32,000 nucleotides of DNA from Methylorubrum extorquens (lineage in GTDB: Bacteria > Pseudomonadota > Alphaproteobacteria > Rhizobiales > Beijerinckiaceae): assembly GCA_900234795.1 (NCBI GenBank), contig LT962688.1, forward strand, positions 450,001 through 482,000. The letters are read 5' to 3'. Below the pieces are notes generated by a model. It had not been told where the DNA came from. It saw nothing but the letters and a program-made list of their open reading frames with translations, and did not search any database. Shown here in pieces: positions 2,959-30,930 of this stretch. Both the position numbers and the translations under genes were made by a program. Position 1 is the stretch's first letter. Every line of letters starts with the position of its first letter.

Positions 2959-3081
2959 GGTGGGTCCGATTGTCGGAGGGGGCTCAAGGTCGATCAGAGA
3001 AGCGTGTGCTTGACGTCACACGCATGGACCGCGCTGCGAGCCTTCGGTCAGGTGAGTTGTCAGTCTCGCAAGCGACGCGGT

Positions 3082-8521: not shown

Positions 8522-11500
8522 GCGGTCGACGTTCCGGCCCGCCTGCCAGTCCTCGAACGCCTGCGCGATCCGCTTCGGCAGGTTGAAGCCGCCGGTGGCC
8601 GCCGCCTTGCCGGCCTCGGCGCCAACGCTCCCCTTCTTCATCTCCGCCAGCGCCTCGGTATTGAACGAGGTGCGCGAGCCGACACCCTGGCGGGTACCAG
8701 TGGCCTCGAAGATGTCCAGCAGGCGGGAGAACCCGGCCGCCAGCCGCTCGCCATCGGGCAGGGCGCGGATCGCGGCGAAGACGTTCTCACCGGCCAGATC
8801 GTTGCCGCGGATGAAGGCCTGGAACTTGGCCCCGCCGGCTTGATTAGGGCCGCTCTGGAGATCCTTGGTTTTCGCCGCGAACTCGGTTCCGAGATAGGTC
8901 CGGACGAGCTCGCGCGCGGCCAGCGAGTTGCTCCGCGAGATCGTGCCGACGGCGGCCCCGACATCGGCCGCGGAGCCCTCGACAGGCTTGATCGGGAACA
9001 GCGTGTCGATCGCGGCCTTCACGTCCGGTCGCTCGGCGATCCGGCCCAGCGGCGAGCGTTCCACCGCCTCGCGACCCTGATGGGCGAGGGCGAGGCGCTG
9101 AAGACGGGAACGAGCCTCCGGGATCTGGGCGAGCAGGTCCTCGTTCTGGCGCATCGCGGCACGGATGCCGTCGGCGGTCAGCGGGCCGCTGCCGCTCACG
9201 CCATCGAGGATGCGCGTCACCTCGCGCGCCTCGAAGGCGTTGCGAGCCGCGGGCGTGGCGTTGGCCAGGAACTCGCGGGCGGCGGTCGCCCCTTCGAGAT
9301 GGGTCGGCACCTGCTCCGACGGCGTCTCCATCCGGCGGGTCAGCGGATCGCGTTGCGTCACTCGGGCAAGCGGAGCGTTACCGGCGAACGGTTCGAGGGG
9401 CCGGCTGTTGGCAGCGAAGTTCGCGTCCGCAGTGGCCACTTCGGGCGCGGCCTTCAGCTGCTCGTCGAGCGACCGGCGCACGGCCTGAAGGTCGCGCACC
9501 TTCGTGCCGTCGCCGTCGGCCTGCGCGCGGGCGATGCGCTGGTCAAGCCGTTCGCGGGCATGCAGCAGTCCCTCGATCGACAGATCGGTCTCACGGACGC
9601 CCGACACCGGGTCGGTGCCATATTCCATGAAGTCGCGACGCACCTGCTCCAGCTCGGTCCGGACGTCACCCTTGGCCGTGCGCGCCTGCCGGTCGATCGC
9701 GTCTAGAGCGGCCTGCGGGTTCACCTGCCCGAAGCGCGGCGCGGAGATCTCCTCCGTGACCGTCGTCGGCACCATGCGGGAGGAGGGGCCGCTCGCGGGC
9801 TCTTTCGAGGCCATCACGACGCGCTCATAAGCGCTGAGCGGGTCGGACTCGTCACCGCGCATCAGGGCCGCGGCCGCCCGGTCGAGCGTGCCCTTGTCCA
9901 CCGTTTTGGGATCGACGCCTGCCTCGGTCAGCGCGCGGCGAATGTCGGTTGTCGCCTGGCTGGCGGAGGCCTGGAACTCGTCGCGCATCGCGCCGAACCC
10001 GGACCGGTCATCGTGACCCTGCCAGTCCCACGGATAGGTGCGGCGTCCGCGGGCTTCCTGCTCTAGGAGGCCGATCAGCTCGTCATGGATATTGCGCTCC
10101 ATCCCACCGCCGACGTCGGGCGGCAGGTAGCCCTCTTCGATCAGGCGGGTGCGCCAGAAATTATCGATCCCCTTGCCGTTCTCCTGCACGAGGTTGGCGA
10201 CGCCGGGCTGCCGGAAGCGGTCGAGCCCGGCCGCCTTCACGTCCCCGCGCTCAAGACCGATGCCGCCATTCTCGGCGATGAAGCGGGCGAGCGACTTCGT
10301 GCCCGGCTGTAGGGCGGGCGCCTCCGGTCGCGTCGGCGCCATCGAGCCGATGGTGTCCGGCCCGCGCGGCGGCGGGTCGTAGCGCAGAGGGCCGCCAGCG
10401 CCGTTGTCGAGCGTCTGGAGCATCGGCTCGCCGGGCCGCTCCACGGTCACCGTGCGGTCGATGCCGATGCGCTCCTCGGCAGCGCGGGCGGCGGCATAGT
10501 CGCGGGCCGCCTGTTCGGAGCGCGCCGTCTCGCGGGCATCGGCGACACCGCGCATCTCGCGCTGGATCACCTGCCCGGCCTGATCGGGAGAGACCCGCGG
10601 GCCGGCGCCCTGCGTCGCGCGGATCACCGCCTGCCCCTCGGGTGTGGCGGCCACAGCGTTGCGGGCCGCGGCCTGGACCGCCTCGCCGGTGCGGGAAGAG
10701 GAGGGCGAGGCCGGCGCAATGGCATCGAGACCCGCCTGTCCGGCAGCATCGATCTGGCCGGGGCGGGCGGCGAAGAACTCGGAAAGCCCACCCTGTCCTT
10801 CAACGACGCGCTGGAGATCGCCGAGACGACGCGGGCCGACGACCTGCTGCAGCGCCTCCGCCCAGGTCAGGGCGACACCCCGGCCCGCCGCGTCATCCAT
10901 GAGCGAGCGAACCGCCGTGACCTCGTCCGTCGAGATCTTGCCGGCCGCGGCATCGAACAGGCGCTCGGCCGTGCCGGGGCGGCGCGTGAAGGCCTGCGCG
11001 GCGCCGCCGGCCACACCGCCGACGAGGCGGGCGACAGGCTCGGCCGCGGTGCCCTCCGTGATCTGCCCCGCCGTCTCGGAAGCGACGGCCGGCAGAAGAG
11101 CGTTGCGCGCCGCCGTGGCGACGCTCTTACCCGCGCCCGGCACGAACTCGGCGACCGTGCGCGCGAACTTGCCCGGCGTGGTCTGGGGCTCGTAGAGCTT
11201 GCCGGTCGCCGCCTCGAGCGCGCTGATCGCGGACTGGCCCGGCATCGGCAGTTCGGACGGCGATGGAAGTCCGCCCTTCACCGCCGCGCGGGCCTCCGCA
11301 GCTTCCGCTTCCGGCAGTGGTGCCTTGCCGGCCAGAGCGCGGGCACCCTTGGCCACCTTGTCGGTCAGGTAGCCGATGCCGGCCTCGGTCAGCCCGAGGA
11401 CCGTCTGCGGCAGGTCCGGCAGTCCGGCGGCGCCACGGATGATACCGGCGCCGGCCGACTGAACGACATCGCCGACCACCGACGGGGCGTCCGCCGCGGG

Positions 11501-11620
11501 CTTCCTGCCCTTGGGCGCGGCCTCATCGAACTGGTCGAAGACATTGCCGCCGGACGGCGCCGCGCCGGAGGCTTTCGGCGCGGCCGGCGCTTCATCGAAC
11601 TGGTCGAAGACGTTCGCCAT
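8339..11620 (-). CDS. Large internal-virion/ejection-type protein (1093 aa)
   Basis: This is a long ORF with high GC3. The N-terminus carries a duplicated NVFDQFDE motif and the protein is Ala/Gly/Arg rich. It sits directly after the SLT-domain protein, where P22-like phages place their ejection proteins. The function is inferred from position only. Confidence 0.75.
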   Translation of the reverse strand: MANVFDQFDEAPAAPKASGAAPSGGNVFDQFDEAAPKGRKPAADAPSVVGDVVQSAGAGIIRGAAGLPDLPQTVLGLTEAGIGYLTDKVAKGARALAGKAPLPEAEAAEARAAVKGGLPSPSELPMPGQSAISALEAATGKLYEPQTTPGKFARTVAEFVPGAGKSVATAARNALLPAVASETAGQITEGTAAEPVARLVGGVAGGAAQAFTRRPGTAERLFDAAAGKISTDEVTAVRSLMDDAAGRGVALTWAEALQQVVGPRRLGDLQRVVEGQGGLSEFFAARPGQIDAAGQAGLDAIAPASPSSSRTGEAVQAAARNAVAATPEGQAVIRATQGAGPRVSPDQAGQVIQREMRGVADARETARSEQAARDYAAARAAEERIGIDRTVTVERPGEPMLQTLDNGAGGPLRYDPPPRGPDTIGSMAPTRPEAPALQPGTKSLARFIAENGGIGLERGDVKAAGLDRFRQPGVANLVQENGKGIDNFWRTRLIEEGYLPPDVGGGMERNIHDELIGLLEQEARGRRTYPWDWQGHDDRSGFGAMRDEFQASASQATTDIRRALTEAGVDPKTVDKGTLDRAAAALMRGDESDPLSAYERVVMASKEPASGPSSRMVPTTVTEEISAPRFGQVNPQAALDAIDRQARTAKGDVRTELEQVRRDFMEYGTDPVSGVRETDLSIEGLLHARERLDQRIARAQADGDGTKVRDLQAVRRSLDEQLKAAPEVATADANFAANSRPLEPFAGNAPLARVTQRDPLTRRMETPSEQVPTHLEGATAAREFLANATPAARNAFEAREVTRILDGVSGSGPLTADGIRAAMRQNEDLLAQIPEARSRLQRLALAHQGREAVERSPLGRIAERPDVKAAIDTLFPIKPVEGSAADVGAAVGTISRSNSLAARELVRTYLGTEFAAKTKDLQSGPNQAGGAKFQAFIRGNDLAGENVFAAIRALPDGERLAAGFSRLLDIFEATGTRQGVGSRTSFNTEALAEMKKGSVGAEAGKAAATGGFNLPKRIAQAFEDWQAGRNVDRLAALLTTPEGGRRLADLANAKPGADTIALLNRLVVLGARGAGGGEREGGGPLQLKVRAVP

Positions 11621-11625
11621 CAGGA

Positions 11626-13719
11626 TCAGGGTCCCGCAAGAATGCTGTCCGGTCCGTTCTCACGGGCCGGGCCGAGGATACGCGCCGAGGCGCCGGGACC
11701 ATACTTCGCATCGAACTGGTCACGGTTGGCGGGATTGGATCGAAGGAACCTCACGGCCGCCATGGGGATGCTAACCGGGCCGGTGGGCGCTGCCTTCGCG
11801 GCCGGATCAGCCTTTGGCGCCGGAGCGCTGCCGCTCTTCTTCGGCATCTCGTAGGGCTTCACCGTGGAGAACCGCGGCAGCACGTCCTCGGGGTTGATGC
11901 CCGCTCGGCTGACGATGTCCCGGTACCGGGCCGTCTCCTGTCCGAGGGCGCCCTCGTAGGCCTGCATCCGGCCGAACGCCTCGGTCATGATGGCGTTGCG
12001 GGTCTCGGGCGTGAGGGCCTGTCCGCCATTCAGGCTGTTGATCGACCCGACGAGCCAGTCGGGCAGGGAGCCGGTGTTCTTCACCATGACCATCTCGCCC
12101 TCACGGACCACGGACCCAGGGTCCATGATCTTGCCGAGGCCGTAGACGAGGTTCAGGTCGGCCGCCTTCGTGTTGCGCGGCGCAGCTTCCACCATCGCTC
12201 CGTAGATCGGGAGCGCCTGCTCGTAGTTCTTGAACGAGGCGAGCCCCTGGATCTCGCGCCGGATGCTCTGTGCTTCCTCGCGACCCTTGCGCTCGTTCTC
12301 GACCGTCTTGTCGCGATCCGGCGCCGTGAACAGCGGCTTTCCGTCAGGGCTCACGAGGGAGGCACCAGCCGCGACCGTAACCGGCTTCGCGCTCTCGCGG
12401 TCGGGCGCCTGATAGATCACTTGGCCACCAGGTCCCACCAAGGCGCTACCGGGCGAGACCGTGGTCGGTTTCTCGGCCGCCGAGTACAGCACCTCACCGG
12501 TCGCCGTGTCGACGAGGTTGTTGCCGACGGTCGCGGTGTTCCGCTTGGCCTGCCCGATGGGGAGGATTCGCCCGTCTCGAGTGTTCACCCAGGCGGACTG
12601 CCCATTGATCTCCTTGATGTCCCAGCTCTTGTCCCCGCCCTTGAGGAGTTGCCCGAAGATCTCCCCGGCCATGGCGCGGGTGTTCGGGTTGCGCCACGCG
12701 GCGTTGAGCGCGGTCTGAAGCTCCGGCGTCATGCGGGTGGTGGTGCCGCCGGGGAAGCCGCCGAAAGCCTGCGACGGTGCTGCGGCCGGGACGCCGCCCT
12801 GCGGAACGACGAAACCGACCGGCTGCGCGCCGGCAGCCGGAAGGTTCGCCGCATCTGGCTCGGCTGAGGCGACGTGGCGCGACGCCGAAGGGAGCATCCC
12901 CATCTCGCGTTCCATCGCCTGCACGTCAGCCTCGTTGTCGGCGACCGCAACGGACGAGCGCTGCGGCGGCGCGATCTGCGGAGCCGCAGCAACTTGCGTC
13001 TGGGTCGAGGCCGAGCCGCCGCCACGCCGACCGCCCATCCACGCGTACACCTCGCCTGCGGTCTTCGGGGAGCCGTCGCGGTTGAAGAACACCGTGCGGT
13101 TGGCCGAGGCTACACCGGGACCAACCAACGACGCGGCCGGCGCATCGGGGCTGTTCAGCGCACCGGGGATGAACTTCGTCGCGCCACCCGCACCCAGGAA
13201 GTGCGCACCGTAGAGGTTCGTCGGATTGATCGGGATACCGGCTGCCGTGAGGGCCTGCGCGTTGTCCCGCGTGAAGGCCTGCATCGCCCGCTCCTGCTGA
13301 GCCGGGTCGGTGCGTCCGTTCGGGGTCAGTCCCAGGTCCGGGTACTGCTTCGCGAGCCCGGCCCAGGTGCCCTTCGTAAACTGATAGCGACCGAGCGCGG
13401 TGCTATTCGGGTTGGCCGCCGCATCGTTGCCGCCGCTCTCCTTCGCCCGCGTCGAGGCGAGATAATCGCCCATCGAGCCGCCGGTGGCCGCGAAGGTCGG
13501 GGCCGCCGCCACGGGCCCGGAAGCCGCGGGAGCAGCCATCGGCGCACCGAGACCGCTCGCCGGCACAGGCGCGGCCCCGCCACCCTTGTAGGCGTTCATC
13601 AGGTTCGAGATCAGCGTCGGCGCCTCGTCCTCCTGCGCCTGCTTGCGGGCGTCGGAATAGCCGCTGCCGAAGGCATCACCGAGTCCCGACACCATCTGGA
13701 AGACGGTCGCACCGTTCAT
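11626..13719 (-). CDS. Internal virion/ejection protein with SLT-type lytic transglycosylase domain (697 aa)
   Basis: The motif block KESGGNDAAANPNSTALGRYQFTKGTWAGLAKQYP...AHFLGAGGA is typical of phage SLT domains (catalytic E-S-G). There is a 5-nt gap to the next gene. Confidence 0.85.
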   Translation of the reverse strand: MNGATVFQMVSGLGDAFGSGYSDARKQAQEDEAPTLISNLMNAYKGGGAAPVPASGLGAPMAAPAASGPVAAAPTFAATGGSMGDYLASTRAKESGGNDAAANPNSTALGRYQFTKGTWAGLAKQYPDLGLTPNGRTDPAQQERAMQAFTRDNAQALTAAGIPINPTNLYGAHFLGAGGATKFIPGALNSPDAPAASLVGPGVASANRTVFFNRDGSPKTAGEVYAWMGGRRGGGSASTQTQVAAAPQIAPPQRSSVAVADNEADVQAMEREMGMLPSASRHVASAEPDAANLPAAGAQPVGFVVPQGGVPAAAPSQAFGGFPGGTTTRMTPELQTALNAAWRNPNTRAMAGEIFGQLLKGGDKSWDIKEINGQSAWVNTRDGRILPIGQAKRNTATVGNNLVDTATGEVLYSAAEKPTTVSPGSALVGPGGQVIYQAPDRESAKPVTVAAGASLVSPDGKPLFTAPDRDKTVENERKGREEAQSIRREIQGLASFKNYEQALPIYGAMVEAAPRNTKAADLNLVYGLGKIMDPGSVVREGEMVMVKNTGSLPDWLVGSINSLNGGQALTPETRNAIMTEAFGRMQAYEGALGQETARYRDIVSRAGINPEDVLPRFSTVKPYEMPKKSGSAPAPKADPAAKAAPTGPVSIPMAAVRFLRSNPANRDQFDAKYGPGASARILGPARENGPDSILAGP

Positions 13720-19166: not shown

Positions 19167-20403
19167 TTAGCCGCTGACGCGGGTGCCGAGGCGCGGGTCG
19201 ATGGCGGCCACGCCGTACAACACGTCCAGGCGCCACGAGGACACGCGGTTCGGGCCGTCGAAGTAGGGCACGAGCATGACGTGGATGCCCTTGTAGTCCT
19301 GCGTGCCGATCTGGTCGGTCGGCACACCGGCCGGCTTCTCGAAGGGCACGCACACCAGCGCCAGCGCGTTCCGGTGGAACATGAGGTTCTGCTGGAAGGT
19401 GGACGAGGCCGCGCCGTTCCACGTGACCACCGCGCCGGCAGCCGGAGCAGCCGAGACGGTCTGGTAGGCGCCCGTGGTGATGATCGCCGGGGCGATCTGC
19501 ACGGCCGCGTTGCCGGTGCCGTCTGCGGTGGCCGCGGCGGTGGCGACGAACTGCTGGAGGTAGGGCAGGACCTGCTTCGTCACCGGGTTGACGGCGAAGA
19601 CACCCGCGATGCTGAACACCTCGCCCGCGCGGACCGTGGCGGCCGCACCGAGGCCCGCCATGTTGAGGGTCTGGCCCCAGGAGTTCGCTTGCGCGCCGGA
19701 GTAGGTCACCGCCTGACCGGCGCCGTTCACGGTGCCGTTGGTGCGGGTGCCCGTGGTCAGCGTCGGGGCGTTCTGGGTCATGAACGGCTCGACGCCGGCG
19801 AGTCCGCCGAGCTTCGCCTTGCGGTAGGCGTCGGTGTTGGCGCCGTCGATGTAGAGCTGCGCCTGGTTGCCGAGCAGGGCCACATGATCGGCCGGCGACA
19901 GGGCGGCGGAGCGCTCGTCGGACGGAACGGCCATCTCGTTGAGACGCTGCACGCCCGCGAGGAACTTGCCGTAGTTCGAGATGGTGTTGCCCGGGGTGCC
20001 GACCCAGTTCCAGAAGTTCTGCAGAGCGCAGGAGTGGATGTCCTGGTCGATCTGGTTGGCGATCGGCACCATGGCCGGCTTGATCACCCGCTCGGCAAGA
20101 TCGCCGATCTTGAGGGCGAGATCGGTCGAGGAAAATTGGGAAGTCGACGCCGGCCACCTTGTTGACGGTGATCGCGGTCTTGCCCTCGATCACGTCCTGG
20201 TTGGACGCGACGAGGCCGGTGCGGACGCGGAACTGCGCCGGCTTCCGGATCGAGACCGTGTCACCGACCTTGTAGCCGTTGACGTTCTTCGAGAACTCGT
20301 CCTCGTAGCCGCGGAAGACGCGGGAGCCCATTCCGAGCTCGTTGTCGAGGATCTTCACCGCCGCCTTGGCGATGATATTTGCGGTGTTCAGATCGTTGGG
20401 CAC
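19167..20403 (-). pseudogene. Major capsid protein, P22-coat family (PF11651-like), interrupted by a +1 frameshift near 20132-20135
   Basis: The N-terminal 90 or so codons come from track ORF 18919..20403 (GTG 20403 with GAAGGA Shine-Dalgarno: MPNDLNTANIIAKAAVKILDNELGMGSRVFRGYEDEFSK...TVSIRKPAQF). The remainder is in the frame of ORF 19167..20087, which reads STDLALKIGDLAERVIKPAMVPIANQIDQD... upstream of its first Met. Removing one T from the T4 run joins the two parts as VDFPISSTDLAL. Confidence 0.8.
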
Positions 20404-21304
20404 GGAGAGTTATCCTTCGATTTCTGGTGGTCAGCCGTATGTCTTGGCCAGCCACGCATCGAGATCGCTGTCGGGGGGACGACGGCTTGGAGGCTCCGGA
20501 CACCTGCTTGGCGGGCGGCGGAGCGGCGGTTGCGGTCTTGGGTTTCGCCAGGGTCAGGCGCTGTTCGAGCCGGCCGACGGCCTTGGCCGCCGCGCGCTCG
20601 CTCATCCCGTTGAGCTCGGTGAGCACATTGGGGTTCTTGGCGAGGTAGTAGGCGAGCAGGCCGCCCTTCTCGCTCTCGATCACCAGTTCGGTGACGTGGG
20701 GCTTCACCTCGCGGTCCTTGGCCTCCGCGAGCGCCTTGTCGAAGTCCGGGATCTTGCCCCGGGTCTCGTCGAGACGCTCCTGAAAGGCCTCGATCGCGGC
20801 CTCACGCTGGGCGTCCTGCTCGGCAGCCTGCCGGCTGGAGGCCGCAGCCTCACGGTCGGCGATGCGCTGCTCGGCGACGGCGAGCTTCACATCGTAGCGA
20901 CGCTGCGCGCGGTCGAATTCCGCCCAGTCCTTGAAGTCCTCTTCCTTCGGTGCCGGTCCGATCTCCTTCCCGATGGCTGCAGCCCGATCGACGCCGGCAG
21001 CCGGAGCCGCGCTGCGAACCGATGCGAGTTCGTCCTTGAGACGGGCGATCTGGTCCTGCATCCGCTGGATGCCGGAACGCTTCTTGGGCTTATCCTCGCC
21101 CCCTTCGCCCTCGCCTTCGCCCTTGGCGGGCTCCTGCTTGGGCTTCTCGGCGGTGGATTCGCCCCCTTCTTCCCCTGGCGTTGCGGCGCCCGTCTCGATC
21201 TCGGCCGACTGGCCTTCGGTCGGGTCGGTCGTCGCGTCCGAGGCTTCGCTACCTGCCGCTGGCGTCTCCGCCTGCGCGCCCAGCACGATCAGATCCTCGT
21301 CCAT
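20261..21304 (-). CDS. Scaffolding protein (acidic N-terminus, helical body); as sequenced the 3' end reads through into the capsid gene, and the authentic stop is probably 20431 after a +1 frame correction
   Basis: It lies between portal and coat. It has a Glu/Lys/Ala-rich helical composition (QDQIARLKDELASV..., AEQRIADREAAASSRQAAEQDAQREAAIEAFQERLDE). After the C6 run at 20473-20478 the ORF becomes Arg-rich and overlaps the capsid start by 142 nt. The +1 frame instead gives PDSDLDAWLAKTYG-stop at 20431-20433, just before the capsid Shine-Dalgarno. Confidence 0.7.
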   Translation of the reverse strand: MDEDLIVLGAQAETPAAGSEASDATTDPTEGQSAEIETGAATPGEEGGESTAEKPKQEPAKGEGEGEGGEDKPKKRSGIQRMQDQIARLKDELASVRSAAPAAGVDRAAAIGKEIGPAPKEEDFKDWAEFDRAQRRYDVKLAVAEQRIADREAAASSRQAAEQDAQREAAIEAFQERLDETRGKIPDFDKALAEAKDREVKPHVTELVIESEKGGLLAYYLAKNPNVLTELNGMSERAAAKAVGRLEQRLTLAKPKTATAAPPPAKQVSGASKPSSPRQRSRCVAGQDIRLTTRNRRITLRAQRSEHRKYHRQGGGEDPRQRARNGLPRLPRLRGRVLEERQRLQGR

Positions 21305-21319
21305 GTGTCGTGGTCCATG

Positions 21320-21351
21320 AAAAAACCCGCCGCGCGGTGAGCGGGCGGGTT
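21320..21351 (-). terminator. Canonical intrinsic terminator 15 nt upstream of the scaffold start codon
   Basis: On the minus strand there is a GC-rich hairpin (21351-21324; ACCCGCC/GGCGGGT core with one bulge). It overlaps at its 3' end and is followed by a U6 run (21325-21320), then CATGGACCACGACAC-ATG. Confidence 0.65.
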
Positions 21352-21504
21352 CGGTGCATCCTCACGGCCTGGCAGCGGGTCCGCCGGCCTGCGGGATCGG
21401 GGTGGGCGCAATTCGCCCCACGGTGGGGCGCGCCGATCAGAATGGTGGGATTGCCGCTGACGGGGCTGTGCCCGCACGTCTCGCGACGGATAATCCTTGG
21501 GGCT

Positions 21505-21527
21505 GTTTTGCCCGTCGGGTCAAGGGG
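21505..21527 (-). promoter_or_regulatory. 23-bp dyad motif, copy B (GTTTTGCCCGTCGGGTCAAGGGG)
   Basis: It is 22/23 identical to 8098-8120. It lies 201 nt ahead (in the minus sense) of the scaffold start and 30 nt from the left end of the IS630 element. Confidence 0.45.
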
Positions 21528-21556
21528 GAGGACCCTTGTTTAGCCCGTCCCAGCTA

Positions 21557-22602
21557 GAGCTATTGCCGATCAGGTTGGATCGTATCCTGCCGCTGTGAGG
21601 CAGTTGCGGCAGGCCTTTGGTGTTAGGCTGTCGAGGGCGGATCGGATTGCCGCTTTCAGATCTGGAAGCGTCCGCGCGGCGGCTTTGCGCAGGTCGGCTT
21701 TGAGCTTGGCGAAGATCTGTTCGATCGGGTTGAGGTCCGGCGAGTAGGGCGGAAGATAGAGCAGCTTGGCGCCCACCGCCTGGATGGCTTCGCGCACGCC
21801 GGCCACCTTGTGAGCGCCGAGGTTGTCCATGATCACCGTGTCACCCCGCTTCAGCACGGGCACCAGGGTGTCGGTGACGTAGGCCCGGAAGCGCTGGCCG
21901 TTGGTGGCTCCGTCGAACAGGGCCGTGGCCGCCACCCCGCTCGTGCGCAGGGCGGCCGTGACGGTGGTGGTCTTCCAGTGGCCGTGCGGAACCGCGACGC
22001 GGCAGCGCTCACCGCGCACGGCCCAGCCGTAGCGGCGGACCATGTTGGTCGTGGTGGCCGTTTCGTCGAGGAAGACGAGGCTGTCGGGATCGAGTTCATC
22101 CTGAGCCTCGAACCAGTCCTCGCGCTCGGCCTTCACGTTCGGCCGCTGCTGCTCGGCAGCGTGGAGGGTGTTTTTTTGTGCGTGACGGCGTGGCGCCGGA
22201 AGAAGCGCGACAGGCTGCTCTCGCTGGTGGCGATACCGCGTTCGGCCAGCAGGGCGCGCACCTCCGATAGGGTGAGCATTGGTCGACCCAAGCGCAGTTT
22301 GAGGATCAACTCGGCTCGCGCTTCGAGGTGCTGCGAGCGTCGGTCGCCACCCTGCGGCTTGGCCGCCACCCGGCCTTCCCGCTCGAAGCTCTCCTGCCAG
22401 CGGATAGCGCTGGCGGGACTGACCCCGAACCGCTCGGCGGCCTGACGGCGCGAGGCGCCCGCGGACACGGCCTTCACGACGCGCGCGCGCAGATCCGATG
22501 ACAACGGTGACCCCATCGATCCTCCTGTCGAGAGGACCAAAGGGAATCAGATCTCGTCTCGTCAGGGAACCCCAACCGACTCACCGCGGTCGGCAACAGC
22601 TC
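21557..22602 (-). mobile_element. IS630-family insertion sequence (1046 bp) with TA target-site duplication
   Basis: The terminal inverted repeats are GAGCTATTGCCGATC (21557-21571) and the reverse complement of 22588-22602, GAGCTGTTGCCGACC (13/15 match). TA is present at 21555-21556 and 22603-22604. The element encodes a two-frame DDE transposase. Confidence 0.85.
21570..22516 (-). CDS. IS630-family transposase, two frames joined by a putative -1 frameshift at an A7 run
   Basis: ATG 22516 is preceded by an AGGAGG Shine-Dalgarno. Frame A carries an HTH region (...RRHAVTHKK), and the slippery A7 corresponds to T7 at 22171-22177 on the plus strand. Frame B continues NTLHAAEQQRPNVKAEREDW... with DDE-region motifs VFLDETA, IMDNLGAHK and PYSPDLNPIEQ. 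Confidence 0.85.
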
Positions 22603-22637
22603 TAGCGCACCAACGCTTATGCTTTTGCGATGCCCCG

Positions 22638-24779
22638 TTACCCAACCACCATCCACGACGCATCGAGTGAGACAGCGCCAAAACCTTGTTGTGTCACGTG
22701 ATTGCTCGCGGTGAGCTGCGCACCATTCATATTCCAGATATCAACCGATCCATTATCATTCTGCCACAAAACGTCTGCGTAGCCGTCCCCGTTGAAGTCG
22801 CCCGATCCAGCGACATGCCAATCCGATCCCGGGGCAACACTTAAGCCCCCGGCGGTCACGTGATCGCTTCTGACGAGCTGCGCACCGTTCATCGTCCAGA
22901 GATCTACCTGGCCGTTCGTGTTGCGCCACAGCAGATCGGCATGTCCGTTGCCCGTGAAGTCATTGACCGCTGCGATGCTCCAGTCAGGTCCTGGCGCGAC
23001 GATCGAACCCCCGGCTGTGACGTTCGCGCTTACGACAAGCTGGGCGCCGTTCATGGTCCACAGATCGAGGGCACCACTGGCGTTCCGCCACAGTATGTCC
23101 GCCCGACCATCACCCGTGAGATCGGTGGCTGCGGCGATGCTCCAGTCGGACCCTGGCGCTACGACGGTGTTGCTAGCGGTGATCGGGTTGCTGCCGACAA
23201 GCTGCGAGCCAAACATGGTCCAAACGTCGAGCCTGCCGGTGTTGCTGTTCCGCCAGAGGATCTCACTCGCACCGTCTCCAGTGAAGTCGGCCGTATCGGC
23301 GACCTGCCATTCAGGCCCGAGCCTCACGGGCGTGTTGCCGACGGTGACATGGTTGCTTGCCACTATCTGATTGGCGAGAGGGCCACCGCCCATCGTCCAG
23401 ATATCGATGCTGCCATCGACGTTGCGCCACAGGACGTCAGTTGTGCTGTCGCTGTTGAAGTCGCCCGTGCCAGCGACGCTCCAGTCAGAGCCCGGGGCAA
23501 CGGTCGTCCCGTTGGAGCTGATGAAGTTGTTTCCAAACAGGATCTCGTTACCGCTCATGGCCCACAGTGCGGTCTGACCCCCGGTGTTATGCCAAATAAT
23601 GTCCGTATTGGTGTCGCCATTCACACTGGTAGTGGAGCGCGGACCGATTATGGCCCCGGCTATATCCGTGTCCCCAGCCGCGATGCGATCATAAGCAAGA
23701 GCCAAGCGCCTGCCGCCGATGTTGATCAGATCCATAGAGTCAACAGAAACCGCATTCGCTATCAATACATTGCTTCCGACAGCGCTGCCATTGGCATCGT
23801 AGGTTTCCCCGACGATCATATTCCGGGCGTTATCGAACCAGCTAACGAAAAACCCGCCGTCATCCAACGCAGCGACAGTCGAATTAGTTTGATTCCCGGT
23901 GACATACTCATTGACTAAGAAGTCACCCCTAATAACTGTTCCGCGACTATCTACAACGGCCGCATGAATATCGGTCTGGCCTCGATCTGTGTCAGTCCAT
24001 GTAAAAACAAATCTGTCATTAGATAAGGCTGCAGTATCAACCTCATACTGCTCACGCTCGCCAAAAGAGCTTGACAGCAAACCACTGTTCAGCCCTTCTC
24101 CGTTCGACGTAAATATACTATATCCAAGCTGATCGGGTGGACGTACTGTATTCCCATCTGACTGGGATTGATACGCCACCACAAATGTCCCGTTTGCCGC
24201 AGCAGACATGGATGGGTCGGTGCGATTGGTTGCGGTCCACTGCCTCTGAAACGAAAATCCAGTCTCAAAGAATGTATTTGAAGCAACAGTAATCGTATTT
24301 ATTGTAAATCCGTTCCAGATAGCAGCATAAATCCCACCCCTATCTGTACCGCTTACACCCAAGCCTTCGTAGGCGACAACGTAACCATTGCCAGGAAGCC
24401 CAGAAATAGATAGGTCGTCCGTACTCCGCGATGCAGTTATATTTTCTGTCGCGGCATAACTCACGGCTTGATTATCGATATTGTACCTATTAACAGACGT
24501 GGTACCGCCAGATTGATAGACTGCAGCCAAGCCTCCAGATGTAAGGCCCGCAAGCGAAGCATTTTGGGCCCGTGGACCTGTAAGGGCGAATTCTTGTCCA
24601 GCAGTGTTAAATGCAAATCCGAATAACTGAGCTTCAATATTTGAAAAGGCAGCATTGTTCCAAGAAACAATCCAATTACCTCCTTGAAGATAAGCGGCAG
24701 AGGGGTTGTTCTGTGAAAACCCGTTGTCAATTTGATTAACTTGTGACAGCGAAGCCACAGGCAACAGCCGAGTCGTCAT
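22638..24779 (-). CDS. 713-aa two-domain beta-propeller-like protein: degenerate N-terminal repeats plus a C-terminal FG-GAP/VCBS propeller
   Basis: The C-terminal half has at least six blades of the pattern GDF(N/T)GDGxxDxLWRNxxGxxDxWxMNGAQL. The N-terminal half has repeats such as NSTVAALDDGGFFVSWFD and ANGTFVVAYQSQSDG. I see no obvious signal peptide. A sampled 60-nt stretch in the 5' half gave 47% GC. Confidence 0.85.
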   Translation of the reverse strand: MTTRLLPVASLSQVNQIDNGFSQNNPSAAYLQGGNWIVSWNNAAFSNIEAQLFGFAFNTAGQEFALTGPRAQNASLAGLTSGGLAAVYQSGGTTSVNRYNIDNQAVSYAATENITASRSTDDLSISGLPGNGYVVAYEGLGVSGTDRGGIYAAIWNGFTINTITVASNTFFETGFSFQRQWTATNRTDPSMSAAANGTFVVAYQSQSDGNTVRPPDQLGYSIFTSNGEGLNSGLLSSSFGEREQYEVDTAALSNDRFVFTWTDTDRGQTDIHAAVVDSRGTVIRGDFLVNEYVTGNQTNSTVAALDDGGFFVSWFDNARNMIVGETYDANGSAVGSNVLIANAVSVDSMDLINIGGRRLALAYDRIAAGDTDIAGAIIGPRSTTSVNGDTNTDIIWHNTGGQTALWAMSGNEILFGNNFISSNGTTVAPGSDWSVAGTGDFNSDSTTDVLWRNVDGSIDIWTMGGGPLANQIVASNHVTVGNTPVRLGPEWQVADTADFTGDGASEILWRNSNTGRLDVWTMFGSQLVGSNPITASNTVVAPGSDWSIAAATDLTGDGRADILWRNASGALDLWTMNGAQLVVSANVTAGGSIVAPGPDWSIAAVNDFTGNGHADLLWRNTNGQVDLWTMNGAQLVRSDHVTAGGLSVAPGSDWHVAGSGDFNGDGYADVLWQNDNGSVDIWNMNGAQLTASNHVTQQGFGAVSLDASWMVVG
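22641..23627 (-). repeat. Coding tandem repeats of about 190-200 bp (FG-GAP blades)
   Basis: Repeated DNA and protein blocks encode the successive blades (DVLWRN..DIWTM, EILWRN..DVWTM, DILWRN..DLWTM, DLLWRN..DLWTM, DVLWQN..DIWNM). Confidence 0.7.
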
Positions 24780-24816
24780 AAAATCCCCAATGCTTTGAAA
24801 ACGTTCTTATAACTCC

Positions 24817-24845
24817 ATCCTAGGCTTGGCAATTCGAGGGGTCAA
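24817..24845 (-). promoter_or_regulatory. Sigma70-like promoter for the FG-GAP gene: TTGACC-N17-TAGGAT
   Basis: On the minus strand, TTGACC is the complement of 24840-24845 and TAGGAT is the complement of 24817-24822, with an exact 17-nt spacer. The region is AT-rich and sits about 35-60 nt upstream of ATG 24779, which has a GGGGA Shine-Dalgarno. Confidence 0.45.
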
Positions 24846-24918
24846 TTAAAAATCGCTCGCAGGCTGAAGTCTGCTTTAGGTACCGGTATTAGCTGCATTG
24901 TGGATCAAAGCTGCTGGT

Positions 24919-25080
24919 TCAGAGCAAACCGAGCCAGCCGATCAGGAAAATTACAGCGAGCAGGACGAGCCCGAGCAAGGCGCCCCGGATCGCACCTGTC
25001 ACGCATTGCTGCAGGATCGGCGGCGCCGCCTGTGCCGCCGTAGTCTCCCGATGCCATTGGTCGATCAAGGTTTGGCGCAT
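24919..25080 (-). CDS. Possible small tail-anchored membrane protein (53 aa)
   Basis: From ATG 25080 the sequence is MRQTLIDQWHRETTAAQAAPPILQQCVTGAIRGALLGLVLLAVIFLIGWLGLL, with a C-terminal TM segment. It lies between the portal stop and the FG-GAP promoter. The start choice is uncertain (the track ORF begins at 25143). Confidence 0.35.
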   Translation of the reverse strand: MRQTLIDQWHRETTAAQAAPPILQQCVTGAIRGALLGLVLLAVIFLIGWLGLL

Positions 25081-25174
25081 GATGGCACGTCGAGACCGGC
25101 AAAGCTGCCGAGCGAACATCAATCGTGTACGCGCACTCGTCAATCTCGCCGTGGTGTCTAGGGGCGCAAAATCG

Positions 25175-27514
25175 TCATGCGGGCGGGCCCATCATCTCGG
25201 GCGCGGGCTGACCAAGCGCGCCGGGGTCAAAAGAAAAGGCGCCCGGAGGCGCCTCGATGAAGTCGGTGGGGAGCGCTATGGGCGGCGGCTCCGGTTCGGC
25301 AGGCGGCGCCGGCAGCGGCGCGGCTGCCATCTCTTCCATGATCATCGAGACCACTTCGGAGAGCTGCGCGACGGCGGCGACGATCGCGTCGAGGCGCGGG
25401 TCGGCGGCGGGCGCGGTGCCTTCCATGCCGGGCATCTGCGGGCGGTTGGCCTCCATCACGCGTGCCTCGGCTTCGATCTGCGCCTTCTCGATCTCGGCCT
25501 GGATCTTCATCACGTCGGCCTGGAGCTTCTCGCGCTCCACGGCGAGCTTTTCCATGTCGAGCTGCTGGCGCCCGGCCTCGATCTGCTGCTGGCGCTCCTG
25601 CTGCGCCATGGCAGCCTGTTCCTGCGGCGAAGGTGGGACCGGCGGCGGCGGCGCCTCGCCGCTCTCCTCGGCCTCCTGCGCCTGGATCTGAGGCGGCAGC
25701 ATGGTGCGGATGCGCTTGGCGATCTTGTCCGCCATCGGCCAATCCTGCGCCTTGGCCAGCAGGTCGAGAACGAGGGGCGCAAGCTGCGGCGCGGCCTGCA
25801 CCAACTGGATCATGCCGTCGAGCGCAGCCTCGCGCCGGGTCGTGTAGCTCGGGCCCATCTCCATCGCGACATCGTAGGCGCCGACCGTGACGTCGTTCTG
25901 GATCTTGTCGAGCGGCTGCCCGTCCTCGGCGAGGCCGCCCACCTGGTTGATCTCGACGAGGTCAACCTTGCCGTCCTCGCCCACGATCCGAAGCGTCCGA
26001 GCGGTGTCGTAGACGTGTGGGATCATCCCGCAGACGATCGCGCCCGTGTGCCGGATGCTGCGCGAGAAGTTCACGATGTAGACGAACGAACCGACGTCGC
26101 CCTCGCGCTGGCGAGCCTGGATCGCCTTGCCCGAGGTCTCGTTCGAGCGGGCGCCAAGCGAGGCGTCATAGACGCCAGTGACCGCCTTCATGTCCTCGGC
26201 CGCCTCGCGGGTCAGCTCGGCGAGGCCGGCGGAGGCGATGGGCGGGGTCGAGCGCTCCGGCCGCGCTGTCGGCGACTTCTCATCGACATTGTAGGGCAGG
26301 AAGGGGTGGTTCGTGCTGTTGGCCGTGTCCCAGATCGACTCGTAGCCCTTGAACATCTTCTCGGTGCCGAGGAACGGCGCCTTGGGCTGGAGCGCTACCA
26401 CCTCCGTCTGGGTCGAGCGGGCATAGTTGTAGGCGCGTTGCGCATCCTTCGCGAACCGGATCACGCCGCGACGGGCGCGGCGCTTGCCGATCGTCATCTC
26501 GACGCCGACGACCGGCACCACCGGGATGAAGCGGCCGGGGATCTCGGTCGGACCGTCAAGCACGGCGTTCGCGCTGATGACGTAGCGCTCGACACGGTGG
26601 CCGGGGCGCTTCTCCACCCGCACCCGAGCGCCCTCCGCCTTGGCCGCCTCGACCAGCGCCATCTTCTCGGCGTGGTCCTCGGCCGCTTCGTCGGTCAGGT
26701 CCAGGATCTCGCCGTCGGGCATCAGGGCGAGCTTCTTCTGGACGGGCGTCTTGGTGTAATACTCGGCGATCCGCACCATGTCGGTGCCCGCCCACTCGGC
26801 CATGCCAGCGGCCGACAACTCGCTGTCGCCGATCTCGGCGGCCGGGTGATCCGGATAGGTCTCCTCGTAGACGTCCCGGCTCATATCGACGGGAACGAAG
26901 CAGAACTTGGCGTCCTCGCGCGTCGGCAGCACCGCATCCGGGTCCCAGCGGACACCGACACCGTCGGGCACGCCGACGATGCGGATCTCTTGCTCAAACG
27001 TCGTGTCGGAGCCGTATTCTGTGATGACCTTCCAGTGCCCGATGCCGGCACCGACCTGCTGATCCGCCGCCGCGAAGTAGGCCGAGGGCGCGTCCGAGCG
27101 GTTCTCGACGTATCGCACCATGCCGGCGATGACGTCCGCGGTCTCAGGGTCGCCGCGGCTATCCACCGGCACGACCTTGATGGCCGGACGCATCTGGCGA
27201 ATGTCACCGGTGATCTGGGCGATGGTGGTCGGCAACCGGTTGAATTCCAGGCACGGTCGGCCCTCGTCCTCGCGCGCTTGCTTCTCCCGCGCGGGCCACT
27301 GCGCGCCAGGGGTCTCGAGAAAGTCGAGGTCCTCGTAGGCGTCCGTGCGGTTCTGGCGGTCGAACTCATCGGCGCGGCGCCACCGCTTTTTAGCGAGGTC
27401 GAGCACCTTCGCGAAGTCGTCGCCCTTGGTCTCGGTCGACGCCTTCGCCGAAGCCTCGGTCACATCCGGGTCCGTCGCGTCCGCCAGCGCGGCGCGCTTG
27501 GTCTTTCTGGCCAT
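25175..27514 (-). CDS. Portal protein, P22-like, with long C-terminal coiled-coil (barrel-type) extension (779 aa)
   Basis: The start is ATG 27514, 4 nt after the TerL stop; the track ORF extends upstream in Arg/Ser-rich sequence. Blocks recalled from P22 gp1 match: LDFLETPGAQWP, MRPAIKVVPVD..ADVIAGMVRY, GAGIGHWKVITEY, IAEYYTK and GRFIPVVPVVGVE. The C-terminus is Gln/Glu/Ala-rich and helical. Confidence 0.9.
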   Translation of the reverse strand: MARKTKRAALADATDPDVTEASAKASTETKGDDFAKVLDLAKKRWRRADEFDRQNRTDAYEDLDFLETPGAQWPAREKQAREDEGRPCLEFNRLPTTIAQITGDIRQMRPAIKVVPVDSRGDPETADVIAGMVRYVENRSDAPSAYFAAADQQVGAGIGHWKVITEYGSDTTFEQEIRIVGVPDGVGVRWDPDAVLPTREDAKFCFVPVDMSRDVYEETYPDHPAAEIGDSELSAAGMAEWAGTDMVRIAEYYTKTPVQKKLALMPDGEILDLTDEAAEDHAEKMALVEAAKAEGARVRVEKRPGHRVERYVISANAVLDGPTEIPGRFIPVVPVVGVEMTIGKRRARRGVIRFAKDAQRAYNYARSTQTEVVALQPKAPFLGTEKMFKGYESIWDTANSTNHPFLPYNVDEKSPTARPERSTPPIASAGLAELTREAAEDMKAVTGVYDASLGARSNETSGKAIQARQREGDVGSFVYIVNFSRSIRHTGAIVCGMIPHVYDTARTLRIVGEDGKVDLVEINQVGGLAEDGQPLDKIQNDVTVGAYDVAMEMGPSYTTRREAALDGMIQLVQAAPQLAPLVLDLLAKAQDWPMADKIAKRIRTMLPPQIQAQEAEESGEAPPPPVPPSPQEQAAMAQQERQQQIEAGRQQLDMEKLAVEREKLQADVMKIQAEIEKAQIEAEARVMEANRPQMPGMEGTAPAADPRLDAIVAAVAQLSEVVSMIMEEMAAAPLPAPPAEPEPPPIALPTDFIEAPPGAFSFDPGALGQPAPEMMGPPA

Positions 27515-27518
27515 CGTA

Positions 27519-28775
27519 TCAGGCACCCATCCAGCCGCCGCGGCGACGGCCGCTCGCGCTGCCGATCTTGAGCGGGGCCGTCGGCTCCTGGAGCGCAACC
27601 GCGAGGTAGCGGAAGGCATCGGCGCCGTGGCTGGCCCAATCGTGCAGCGGGTTCTTCGAAAACTGACCCGTGTTCGGGTCGACGTCGTACCGGTAGTTTC
27701 TGAGGCACTGCAGTCCGTCGGAGCAGGCGTCAGCATCGAACCAGCAGCGCGAGAACAGCGTGCGGGCAGCGTTGATGCCCTCGGCGACGCCGAGCTTCGG
27801 CGTGATGTGAACCTTGAAGCCTGCGGCCTCCATCTGCTGCGCGATCGTCCGCTCGGAGCCCAGCAGCTCGTTGGTCGCGTCGTGCGGCAACCAGTGGTCG
27901 CCGTAGACGTAGGGCCGGCCCTGGAGGTGCTTCAGGTAGTGCCCGAGCGCGTGGCCGCGGTTCTGGTAATAGTCGATGATCCGGAACTCGAAGCCGACGA
28001 CCTGCGCGAACCAGATCGCGGTCATGTCGGCCCGGCCGAGATCCCAGAACGTGTGCACCGGCTTGGTGCCGTCGTAGGGCACGCGGGTGAAGCGGCTGGC
28101 CTCCGTCGCGGCCATGATCTCGTTGGCGTAGATCGCGCCGTCGAGCACCACCTTGCAGTGGCCGTCCCAAACCGTGAGGTAGGCCGCTGGATCGCGCGCC
28201 TTCAGGTCGAGCGCCTCCTGCTTCAGGACGTCCGGGAACCAGGGGTTGTCCTGCCAGCCGATCTTCACGACCTTGGCGCCGGTCGGCGGGTTCTTCACAA
28301 ACCGCTTATAGGTCTCGTCTTCCTCCAACTCCGGGTTGAAGCTGATCCAGATCTCCGACCCTTCCTTGCGGATGGTGGGAATCAGCACGTCCCAGGAGGT
28401 TTTCGAGACGGTGCGGGCCTCCTCGACCCAGCACACGTCGATGCCTTCGGTCGATTTCACTGAGGCGACGTTGTGCCGGAGCCCCTTGAAGATGAACTCG
28501 GTCCCGTTGGCGCCGAGGATGCGCTTCTCTTGGATCTCGTAGAAACCGGAGAGGCCGAGGAGGTCGATCTGCTGGCTGAGCAGCGCGTGCGCCGATTCCG
28601 CAATCGAATTCTGGAACTCGCGGGCGCAGAGCACGCGGATCTTCCGCTGCGCGCCCATGATGAGGAGTGCCCGCCCGAAGCCCCACGACTTCGCGCCGCC
28701 ACGCCCCCCGTAAGCGATCTTGTAGCGGGCGGGCTCGAAGAGGAAGTCGAGCCGCTCCGGGAACTCAACTGTCAT
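27519..28775 (-). CDS. terL: Terminase large subunit, PBSX family
   Basis: There is a Walker A-like YGGRGGAKSW, then VLCAREFQNSI and DVCWVEEA (Walker B). Nuclease-domain blocks include FWDLGRADMTAIWF, HDA and HGADAFRY. Confidence 0.95.
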   Translation of the reverse strand: MTVEFPERLDFLFEPARYKIAYGGRGGAKSWGFGRALLIMGAQRKIRVLCAREFQNSIAESAHALLSQQIDLLGLSGFYEIQEKRILGANGTEFIFKGLRHNVASVKSTEGIDVCWVEEARTVSKTSWDVLIPTIRKEGSEIWISFNPELEEDETYKRFVKNPPTGAKVVKIGWQDNPWFPDVLKQEALDLKARDPAAYLTVWDGHCKVVLDGAIYANEIMAATEASRFTRVPYDGTKPVHTFWDLGRADMTAIWFAQVVGFEFRIIDYYQNRGHALGHYLKHLQGRPYVYGDHWLPHDATNELLGSERTIAQQMEAAGFKVHITPKLGVAEGINAARTLFSRCWFDADACSDGLQCLRNYRYDVDPNTGQFSKNPLHDWASHGADAFRYLAVALQEPTAPLKIGSASGRRRGGWMGA

Positions 28776-29804: not shown

Positions 29805-30010
29805 AGCCGGATCCTCGTGAGAACGTCGCGGGCGACCTCCGCCAGGACGGCGCTGGCCTCGTCGCGGGGCGTGGTGTCGAGCAGGGCGACCGGCTCCGGC
29901 AACGGGCGGAGGATGCCCTTGCGGCGGAGGTGCGCGCCGTAGGCCGTGGCCGCGGGTTCGATGCGGCCGAGGCTGATCGCCTCGTCACGGGAGACGGGGC
30001 GGTCGGTCAT
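29801..30010 (-). CDS. Hypothetical protein (69 aa)
   Basis: It has an ATGA overlap with the recombinase stop and high GC3. I recognise no family. Confidence 0.5.
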   Translation of the reverse strand: MTDRPVSRDEAISLGRIEPAATAYGAHLRRKGILRPLPEPVALLDTTPRDEASAVLAEVARDVLTRIRL

Positions 30011-30930
30011 AGGAAGCCTTTGCCGGCGTGGTTCTTGAAGGCCTTCGCCCGGCGGTCGTAGGCCTTGAGGGTCTTCACTTCGCGATGCCGGGTCACATCC
30101 ATGACCTTCAGCAGGTCGGCGCCCGCCTCGAGCGCGGAGGTGACGAAGCCGGCGCGCAGCGAGTGTCCGGAGAACAGGGCCGGGTCGAGCTTCGCGGCCT
30201 CGGCGTAGCGCTTGACGATGTTGGCGACGGTCCGGTCGGTCAGGTCGAAGACGCGGCCTTCCTTGATGCCGGCGGCGGCGATCCAGTCCTCGACCGCCTC
30301 GACCGGCTTCAGCTTTCCGCCACGGGGAATCGCGACGATGTGGCCCTCGCCCTCCTGGTCCGTCTTCGACCGGCGGATATGGACGAAAAGCCCGTCGGGC
30401 GTGCGCTCCAGGTCGGCGACCGTGAGGCCGACGATTTCGGACCGGCGGAGCGCTGCGGCGAAACCGAGCAGGAGCACCGCGCGATCCCGCTTGCCGGTCA
30501 GCGTCTCGGGCACCTTCTTCAGCATGGCGCCGATCGCGCGGGCCGTGGCCGGTGCCTTGCGCTCGACGGCGACGCCGAGCCGACGCTTGATGCCCCGGAG
30601 CACCGCCTTCACGGCCTCCGCGTTGGTCGGCGGCTCGTGCCCGGCGATACGGTGCATGTAGCCGATAGCGGCAGCCCGCCGGACGATCGTGGAGGCCTTC
30701 AGCCCGCGGTCGGCGAGGCTGGCGAGGTAGGCCGCGACCGTGGCGGCCGAGGCCGGCGCGACGACCTGGTCGAGCCCCGCAGCCCAGCCGGCGAAATCGC
30801 TCCAGTCCGAGGCGTAGGCCCGCCGCGTCGCATCGCTTTTTTCAGCGAGCGCGTACTGCGCGGCCGAGGCCAGATGATCTTGGAAGACAACGACTTCCGC
30901 CGGTGCGACCGGCACCGGCAGAGTGGTCAT
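30007..30930 (-). CDS. Tyrosine recombinase, Cre-like architecture (307 aa)
   Basis: The N-terminal core-binding region (TRRAYASDWSDFAGWA...VAAYLASLADRGLKASTIVRRAAAIGYMHR) and the catalytic region (AALRRSEI, RRSKTDQEG, GHSLRAGFVTSA, RHREVKTLKAYDRR) parallel the Cre/INT_Cre_C layout, giving R...K...H-x-x-R...H...Y. Confidence 0.9.
   Translation of the reverse strand: MTTLPVPVAPAEVVVFQDHLASAAQYALAEKSDATRRAYASDWSDFAGWAAGLDQVVAPASAATVAAYLASLADRGLKASTIVRRAAAIGYMHRIAGHEPPTNAEAVKAVLRGIKRRLGVAVERKAPATARAIGAMLKKVPETLTGKRDRAVLLLGFAAALRRSEIVGLTVADLERTPDGLFVHIRRSKTDQEGEGHIVAIPRGGKLKPVEAVEDWIAAAGIKEGRVFDLTDRTVANIVKRYAEAAKLDPALFSGHSLRAGFVTSALEAGADLLKVMDVTRHREVKTLKAYDRRAKAFKNHAGKGFL

Follow-up and report, generated by a model that had tools for sequence, protein, structure and literature searches.

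What is a gene for a protein of two β-propellers doing in the head module of a prophage? The question is raised by a 32,000-nucleotide (nt) stretch of Methylorubrum extorquens DNA (assembly GCA_900234795.1, contig LT962688.1, positions 450,001 to 482,000), referred to as the window, whose own numbering is used for all coordinates unless a related locus is named. The window holds a Methylobacterium-type, P22-like prophage, the late genes of which lie on the minus strand in the order large terminase, portal, a 53-amino-acid (aa) open reading frame (ORF) termed orf53, a 713-aa ORF encoding the double β-propeller, two ORFs of an insertion sequence (IS), scaffold and P22-type coat. The answer favored here, with moderate confidence, is that the propeller gene is accessory cargo, i.e., a moron in the broad sense, captured horizontally into a hypervariable slot of P22-like Methylobacterium/Methylorubrum prophages, and that its product would be a calcium-dependent binder outside the cytoplasm.

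The insertion and its empty site

The propeller gene (22638..24779, including the stop codon) starts with ATG and lies, like the other features of this late region described below, on the minus strand. The sequence-only reading of this DNA had pointed to a gene of foreign composition between portal and scaffold, and this is borne out: the GC content is 0.39–0.53 over 23700–24900 and 0.55–0.65 over 22600–23700, so that the ORF at 22638–24779 ranges from 0.39 to 0.65, compared with about 0.69 in the flanks of the insertion. At third codon positions (GC3) the gene has a GC content of 0.57 overall, as compared with 0.75–0.91 in the head genes. The extent of the foreign DNA is given by a related prophage, L024, which presents an exact empty site, with orf53 as the sole gene between its portal and scaffold genes. 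Window positions 25398–24919 align with L024 positions 10045–10530 at 85%, and window positions 21527–21100 with L024 positions 10564–10992 at 97%; in L024 the two matched blocks are separated by 33 bp. Measured against this site the insertion covers 21528..24918, i.e., 3,391 bp instead of the 2.4 kb first proposed, and it comprises a 139-nt AT-rich spacer, the propeller gene, about 60 nt of short junctions and an IS630-family element that had been overlooked. The 53-aa membrane ORF that had been noticed ahead of the gene does exist (orf53, 24919..25080, with a C-terminal transmembrane segment and GC3 of 0.76), but it does not belong to the insertion. It is a backbone gene outside the low-GC DNA, since tblastn against the relatives finds its residues 1–53 intact, at 68–83% identity, right after the portal gene in four of them (L020, L023, L024 and L028).

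The IS630-family element (1,046 bp, 21557..22602) is recognized by Pfam HTH_23 and DDE_3 and by NCBIfam NF033545. It consists of a helix-turn-helix (HTH) orfA (22133–22516, NF033545 model positions 2–121) and a DDE_3 orfB (21570–22136, model positions 126–299), which overlap at a poly-A run, and it ends in imperfect inverted repeats, GAGCTGTTGCCGA / TCGGCAATAGCTC, with TA on the flanks at 22603–22604 and 21555–21556. With a length of about 1.05 kb, a transposase of HTH and DDE_3 parts in two frames with both halves matching NF033545, the poly-A overlap, the terminal inverted repeats and the TA flanks, there is nothing unusual about it for its family. The element begins 35 nt past the stop codon of the propeller gene, between the cargo and a conserved leader described below, and its GC content (0.68) is host-like. 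Contigs from other samples break or switch inside it, and these breaks and cross-overs imply that it is multi-copy in the host. The element is a secondary insertion beside the cargo and not a part of it, and it is a separate and probably later event; the cargo would have arrived first, with IS630 landing afterwards. The element may also have a polar effect on the late transcription that continues into scaffold and coat.

Could the IS have brought the gene in? A composite transposon or an IS-mediated capture was considered and rejected, because the window contains a single copy of the IS and the GC content of this copy is host-like, unlike that of the cargo. Capture by the IS is also opposed by the TA on each flank of the element and by the cargo having no flanking direct repeats. 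A second genomic context for the gene was rejected as well. It was suggested by L005 and L006, which run on into DUF2934/DUF1003 genes; both leave the window sequence within the IS, switching at position 21697 to a related variant of IS630, and their context most likely reflects assembly cross-overs, not a second locus.

The slot between the portal and scaffold genes

Is the propeller gene a fixed part of this prophage lineage? The sequence-only reading had regarded it as optional and had proposed a survey of its presence in related phages, with universal presence at this position as the outcome that would speak against it. Related loci were collected by portal protein, 37 in total, 26 of them from IMG/VR (up to 95% identity) and 11 from reference genomes; the latter comprise nine from Methylobacterium/Methylorubrum (67–89% identity) and two from Camelimonas (47%). 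The gene occurs in none of these 37 loci, and L024 provides the precise empty site. Likewise, tblastn left it unmatched in 50,697 deposited phage genomes, and a pattern scan of IMG/VR returned no relative of it. The absence from the 37 loci and the empty site of L024 support the view of the gene as a moron in the essential sense of the term, i.e., optional foreign cargo at a variable site.

The site itself is highly variable. Among the 32 loci that span both the portal and the scaffold genes, the interval between them ranges from below 0.3 kb to 6.8 kb (L033). It is shorter than 300 bp in seven loci (79–274 bp), including L009 and L025 with 268 bp each, it measures 517 bp in L024, and several loci that contain two small backbone ORFs have about 1 kb. 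In L010, L011, L012, L013, L015, L016 and L021 a conserved pair of small ORFs (about 105 aa and about 165–177 aa, no Pfam match) replaces orf53 after the portal gene, which implies at least two alternative forms of the backbone at the left edge of the slot. The cargo found in the slot is diverse: a PAS-HisKA-HATPase-REC hybrid kinase (L023), a low-GC ankyrin protein (L022), an RTX/M10_C protein encoded on the opposite strand (L033), proteins with GH16 (L034) and GH5 (L036) glycoside hydrolase domains, a 967-aa Ig-like protein (L041) and a GDSL-like protein with a sub-threshold match (L016). In Methylobacterium sp. W2 (L014) the slot holds a low-GC radical-SAM protein (11331–12788 of the locus, minus strand of the locus, opposite to the late genes), which has weak similarity to prokaryotic viperins (PADLOC PDLC02903, E 1e-9) and is a possible defense cargo. 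Thus, slot cargo is found on both strands. Two large co-oriented cargo genes, L033:4893–6731 and L011:7536–11618, have a common N-terminal motif (MGQRFPFGLFGGG and MAQRNLFNLFGGG), with a looser form in L041:2221–5124; it may be a common anchoring module with variable C-termini. This motif, M-x-QR-x-F-x-LFGGG, is not present in the window protein.

On the left the slot is bounded by the stop codon of either the portal gene or orf53, and in relatives without orf53 the homology to the window stops at about 25171–25175. The portal gene (25175..27514, 779 aa; PF16510 P22_portal, E 4e-187; phrog_156), the stop codon of which is this left anchor, probably starts at the ATG at 27514. The longest ORF (853 aa, 25175–27736) would extend about 220 nt into the terminase gene, the match to the P22_portal profile begins at its residue 116, and the 779-aa form is also called on Logan contigs of other assemblies. 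On the right the slot ends at a leader-plus-terminator element upstream of the scaffold gene (20261..21304; phrog_8865, head scaffolding protein, E 4e-40; weak PF09306 match), which is followed by the P22-type coat gene.

This right anchor is a conserved non-coding backbone element (21305..21527), defined by alignments of 10 and of 19 prophages. It consists of an invariant CTTGACC box (TTGACC at 21523–21518), a structured leader of about 190 nt and an intrinsic terminator, whose hairpin (21346–21325) and T-run end about 15 nt ahead of the scaffold ATG. All 19 aligned Methylobacterium-type relatives have this element, L009 with its empty slot among them, and the spacing from the box to the T-run is constant in nearly all relatives of this type; by locus, the element was found in L009–L017, L021–L036 and L042. 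Compensatory changes detected by RNAalifold affect two stems, that of the leader at pairs 198/231 and 211/217 and that of the terminator at pairs 250/261 and 251/260. Rfam contains no family that reaches its gathering score on the leader, and gives only sub-threshold, terminator-like matches. The leader could be a late-promoter/antitermination unit or a regulator of scaffold synthesis. A possible hairpin also joins the T-run region with the scaffold start codon.

How does this compare with the morons known from other phages? The moron is a concept of Hendrix and colleagues, and its definition is given in PMC2629481. For enterobacterial P22-like phages a moron is on record at the ant site alone, which lies between genes 16 and 9, with none elsewhere in the morphogenetic clusters (Villafane et al., PMC2629481). 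The propeller gene resembles the "ant moron" in being an extra gene within the late operon relative to its relatives, in having a composition unlike that of its flanks, in the variable content of its site among relatives and in having no morphogenetic role implied by homology. However, the window site is the portal/scaffold junction and, unlike a classic moron, the gene has no terminator of its own and only a candidate promoter. A literature search found no description of an FG-GAP gene in a prophage head module, of a moron slot between portal and scaffold genes or of a double propeller as moron cargo.

The double-propeller protein and its relatives

The architecture of the 713-aa protein had been read correctly from the sequence as degenerate N-terminal β-repeats followed by at least six FG-GAP blades, with no signal peptide: there are seven repeats and six blades, and no signal peptide was seen. 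The N-terminal propeller (23625..24710, about aa 24–385) is built of seven degenerate "GGFVVxW" repeats with strands assigned by DSSP. The C-terminal FG-GAP/VCBS propeller (22641..23624, aa 386–713, GC3 about 0.70–0.79) contains six 54-aa blades with six "LWRN" motifs of the form (I/L/V)W(R/Q/H)N and five canonical DxxxDGxxD calcium loops, and the DNA under this half repeats with a 162-nt period. Its assignment is supported by Pfam FG-GAP_3 (PF13517, 78.3 bits against a cut-off of 26.9) and FG-GAP (PF01839, 70.6 bits against 22.1). The structure prediction that had been proposed as a check was made with AlphaFold2 and gives two all-β propeller domains of four-stranded blades, with a mean predicted local distance difference test (pLDDT) score of 74, blade cores at 80–93 and most N-terminal blades at 70–94. 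Foldseek searches of PDB and BFVD return generic propellers (LRP6, WD40, CylK, lectins, sialidases), among them the bacterial lectins PLL2, PHL and CV39L, and no specific functional match; phmmer against PDB sequences gives no match to the protein.

The gene is a mosaic. Its GC3 is 0.40 up to codon 303 (nt 23873) and 0.70 beyond, and none of 500 permutations matches the gain in likelihood. Because this break falls inside the sixth N-terminal blade and not at the domain border, it suggests that the gene is a recombinant of two alleles of similar architecture, coming from donors of different GC content. On Logan contigs from other samples the copies of the gene are 99.97–100% identical, and automatic gene calling yields the full 713 aa on five contigs out of 27 and the C-terminal 393 aa alone on the other 22. 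The full 713-aa ORF is the better call, since its 389 low-GC codons would stay open by chance with a probability of about 2e-9 and since these codons match a large repeat family.

Where does such a protein come from? Among 5.8 billion proteins no close homologue of it was found. Homologues of the C-terminal half are 31–40% identical, and several of them contain RTX or M10 peptidase domains: RTX repeats are present in P0004, P0006, P0012, P0014 and P0016, the last of which adds an M10 peptidase domain. The 879-aa P0015 matches at 24% identity over 95% of the query; its two propellers follow each other in the same order, separated by an RTX block. An exhaustive HMMER search with the N-terminal half retrieved 11,607 proteins at E≤0.001. 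Among the best 150 of these, most are giant repeat proteins, in which up to 46 stretches match; of eight N-half relatives that were scanned, two have RTX repeats together with cadherin or Ig domains, and the "GGFVVxW" repeat itself has no Pfam model. Composition also connects the window protein with these families. It is acidic, with 9.4% Asp plus Glu, a C-terminal 393-aa part with an isoelectric point (pI) of 4.1, and neither Lys nor Cys; a pI of about 4.1–5 and low Lys and Cys are traits of the homologues as well. The complete lack of Lys occurs despite an AT-rich 5′ half of the gene; the giant repeat relatives have a median of 1.1% Lys, and none of the 183 other retrieved proteins is Lys-free.

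Two known groups are thus touched. FG-GAP/VCBS propellers belong to the VCBS/integrin/tachylectin supercluster (PMC8023676), with the Vibrio cholerae matrix protein Bap1 as one example (PMC3789753), and the propeller of the known examples is a module that binds ligands outside the cell. The window protein shares with this group the Pfam FG-GAP and FG-GAP_3 repeats, the DxxxDGxxD calcium loops and the predicted propeller fold. Unlike these proteins, it has no signal peptide and no other adhesin domains, its best homologues, at 31–40% identity, cover only the C-terminal half, this half is fused to a propeller of a different repeat family, and the gene sits in a prophage head module. The likeness to the RTX-associated proteins, presumed type I secretion substrates such as P0015 and the giant "GGFVVxW" proteins, extends to both repeat families, to an acidic composition (pI about 4) that is nearly free of Cys and Lys and to the lack of an N-terminal signal peptide. 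However, the window protein is much shorter (713 aa), it is only 24% identical to P0015, and it has neither an RTX nonapeptide nor secretion genes nearby. Taken together, these comparisons point to a derivation from extracellular, signal-peptide-less, RTX-associated repeat proteins; this particular copy might or might not be exported.

Expression, function and competing explanations

The layout of promoter, gene and terminator that the sequence-only reading had described as that of a classic moron is not supported by the details found. The AT-rich spacer (24780..24918, 139 nt, GC 0.45) does contain the announced sigma-70-like site, TTGACC (24845–24840), a 17-nt spacing and TAGGAT (24822–24817). 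A stretch rich in T and A lies directly upstream of this candidate promoter, and GGGGA occurs four nt before the ATG. However, the site is not exact; it matches the consensus at 9 of 12 positions, and one at least as good arises in 9.3% of shuffles of the spacer. The downstream terminator, which had been placed at 21320–21351, is real as a hairpin with a T-run, but it is a backbone feature that lies 1.3 kb from the stop codon, beyond IS630. A transcript made before IS630 had landed would have run about 60 nt past the stop codon into the conserved leader and then to this backbone terminator.

From the portal stop codon to the 3′ end of the gene only weak 5-pair hairpins occur, one in orf53 (24973–24957) and one in the propeller gene (23869–23855). 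Since the gene is oriented like the late operon and only these hairpins lie on the way, read-through from the late operon is to be expected and, judged from sequence, is no less likely than expression of the gene on its own from the prophage, which is possible. Transcription would then depend on late-operon read-through and perhaps also on the weak sigma-70-like promoter in the AT-rich leader of the gene.

From homology and composition, the function is most likely calcium-dependent ligand binding outside the cell. In the favored reading as accessory cargo, the protein would descend from acidic, Cys-poor repeat proteins, which usually have RTX repeats and whose export involves no N-terminal signal; it would leave the cell by a type I-like route or by phage lysis, and outside the cytoplasm it could act as a ligand- or glycan-binding protein of adhesin or lectin type. 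Lysogenic conversion would be a possible use of it.

Several results weigh against the cargo reading as a whole or against parts of it. On the side of expression, these are the chance level of the promoter-like site and the lack of any terminator between the stop codon of the propeller gene (22638) and the backbone, which leaves the gene without a terminator of its own. On the side of export, the 713-aa protein shows no hydrophobic N-terminal signal, the RTX nonapeptide (GGxGxD) is absent by regular expression and gives no PF00353 match, and no exporter genes of the ATP-binding cassette, membrane fusion or outer membrane protein type (ABC/MFP/OMP) occur among the scanned ORFs of the window. 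Function is not named by any family collection that was searched: in PHROGs the sole match is phrog_38635 (unknown function, one blade, E 1e-5) and no structural family is hit, NCBIfam has no family for the protein, and PADLOC gives no match (E≤0.01) for the protein or orf53 and hence no defense assignment. The AlphaFold2 model has a predicted template modelling (pTM) score of 0.52, with low confidence in the inter-domain region 341–382. Finally, as all known copies of the gene are 99.97–100% identical, purifying selection is not assessable, and the gene could be a neutral passenger.

Might the protein instead be a part of the virion? It would then be a decoration close to the head or portal, a fiber or a host-surface module, made only from the late operon, with propellers that bind host polysaccharide. 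The position inside the head module, the late-gene orientation and the weakness of the hairpins between the portal stop and the gene end are in line with this explanation. So are the phage structural, fiber and haemagglutinin-like propellers among the BFVD matches and the fact that several large cargos of the slot are co-oriented and look surface-directed or carbohydrate-active (GH16, GH5, Ig-like), two of them sharing the N-terminal M-x-QR-x-F-x-LFGGG motif that could be a virion anchor. However, prophages with 89–95% identical portals do without the gene and have complete head modules, the window protein does not have the shared motif, and it matches no structural PHROG family. The slot also accommodates non-structural genes (histidine kinase, ankyrin, radical SAM) and antisense genes, and GC3 values of 0.40–0.70, as opposed to 0.75–0.91 in the structural genes, argue against a long co-evolution with the capsid. 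A virion role is, on this evidence, unlikely.

It seems similarly improbable that the gene is a neutral or decaying passenger, i.e., a fragment of an RTX gene that lost its RTX and secretion part upon capture and is now functionless and eroding, with IS630 beside it. Such an origin is consistent with the absence here of the RTX block that P0015 has and with the low-confidence region 341–382 that corresponds to it, with the GC3 breakpoint within a blade at codon 303, with the failure to find a close homologue among 5.8 billion proteins, with the adjoining IS and with the automatic calls of only 393 aa on 22 of 27 contigs. Erosion, however, is hard to reconcile with a 713-codon frame that is intact throughout, including the 389 low-GC codons (chance about 2e-9), or with seven N-terminal repeats and six C-terminal blades that keep their motifs, along with five canonical calcium loops. 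The IS, which has TA on either side, lies 35 nt clear of the ORF, and the ORF is preceded by a plausible ribosome-binding site and by a promoter-like site.

A further, rather more doubtful proposal combines the slot and the protein, so that the portal/scaffold junction would be a platform for cargo exchange and the Lys-free propeller a lectin or adhesin delivered by the phage. The conserved leader with its terminator would set the right border and might control the entry of transcription into scaffold and coat, and genes dropped just upstream of it would be expressed with head assembly undisturbed. The signal-peptide-less propeller, released by lysis or by type I secretion, could then change how a population of Methylobacterium lysogens sticks to surfaces or masks phage receptors.

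Anti-phage defense, which had also been suggested, or superinfection exclusion by a repressed prophage, with the propellers as a sensor or receptor-masking module, is very unlikely: although variable slots of prophages often hold defense genes, one relative has the viperin-like radical-SAM gene in the same slot (PDLC02903, E 1e-9) and a promoter-like site lies upstream, the protein has no match in PADLOC and consists of two propellers only, with no effector domain (such as nuclease, NTPase or TIR), most slot cargo in the relatives is not defense-like and the kinship is with extracellular RTX-type repeat proteins.

Other parts of the window deserve a short mention. The large terminase gene (27519–28775, PF04466) precedes the portal gene, and a few small genes upstream of the terminase genes, within the apparent late direction, there is a tyrosine-recombinase-like gene (30007–30930, minus strand; PF00589/phrog_1), which is an unusual position for an integrase. 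At 2638–4461 on the plus strand, antisense to the late genes, a 607-aa protein is encoded that combines a family 2/92 glycosyltransferase with a C-terminal F5/8 type C (discoidin) domain. Its gene adjoins an N-acetylmuramidase gene (1754–2920) and contains a dip in GC content at 3001–3500; it is a second candidate cargo for lysogenic conversion, possibly serving in the modification of surface polysaccharide.

What follows for the family is first of all that accessory genes can find a place in the P22-type head module. In the lineage of Methylobacterium, very diverse cargo occupies a busy slot at the portal/scaffold junction. This slot, bounded by a conserved RNA-like leader, offers a defined place in which to seek lysogenic-conversion genes of plant-associated methylotrophs; its empty and filled sites form a natural set for experiments. 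The propeller protein is one more uncharacterized cargo of this slot, and if it were indeed exported with neither a signal peptide nor RTX repeats, it would be a compact model for a large and unstudied repeat family. The cargo slot and the conserved leader adjoining it are the more reusable findings as compared with the propeller gene itself.

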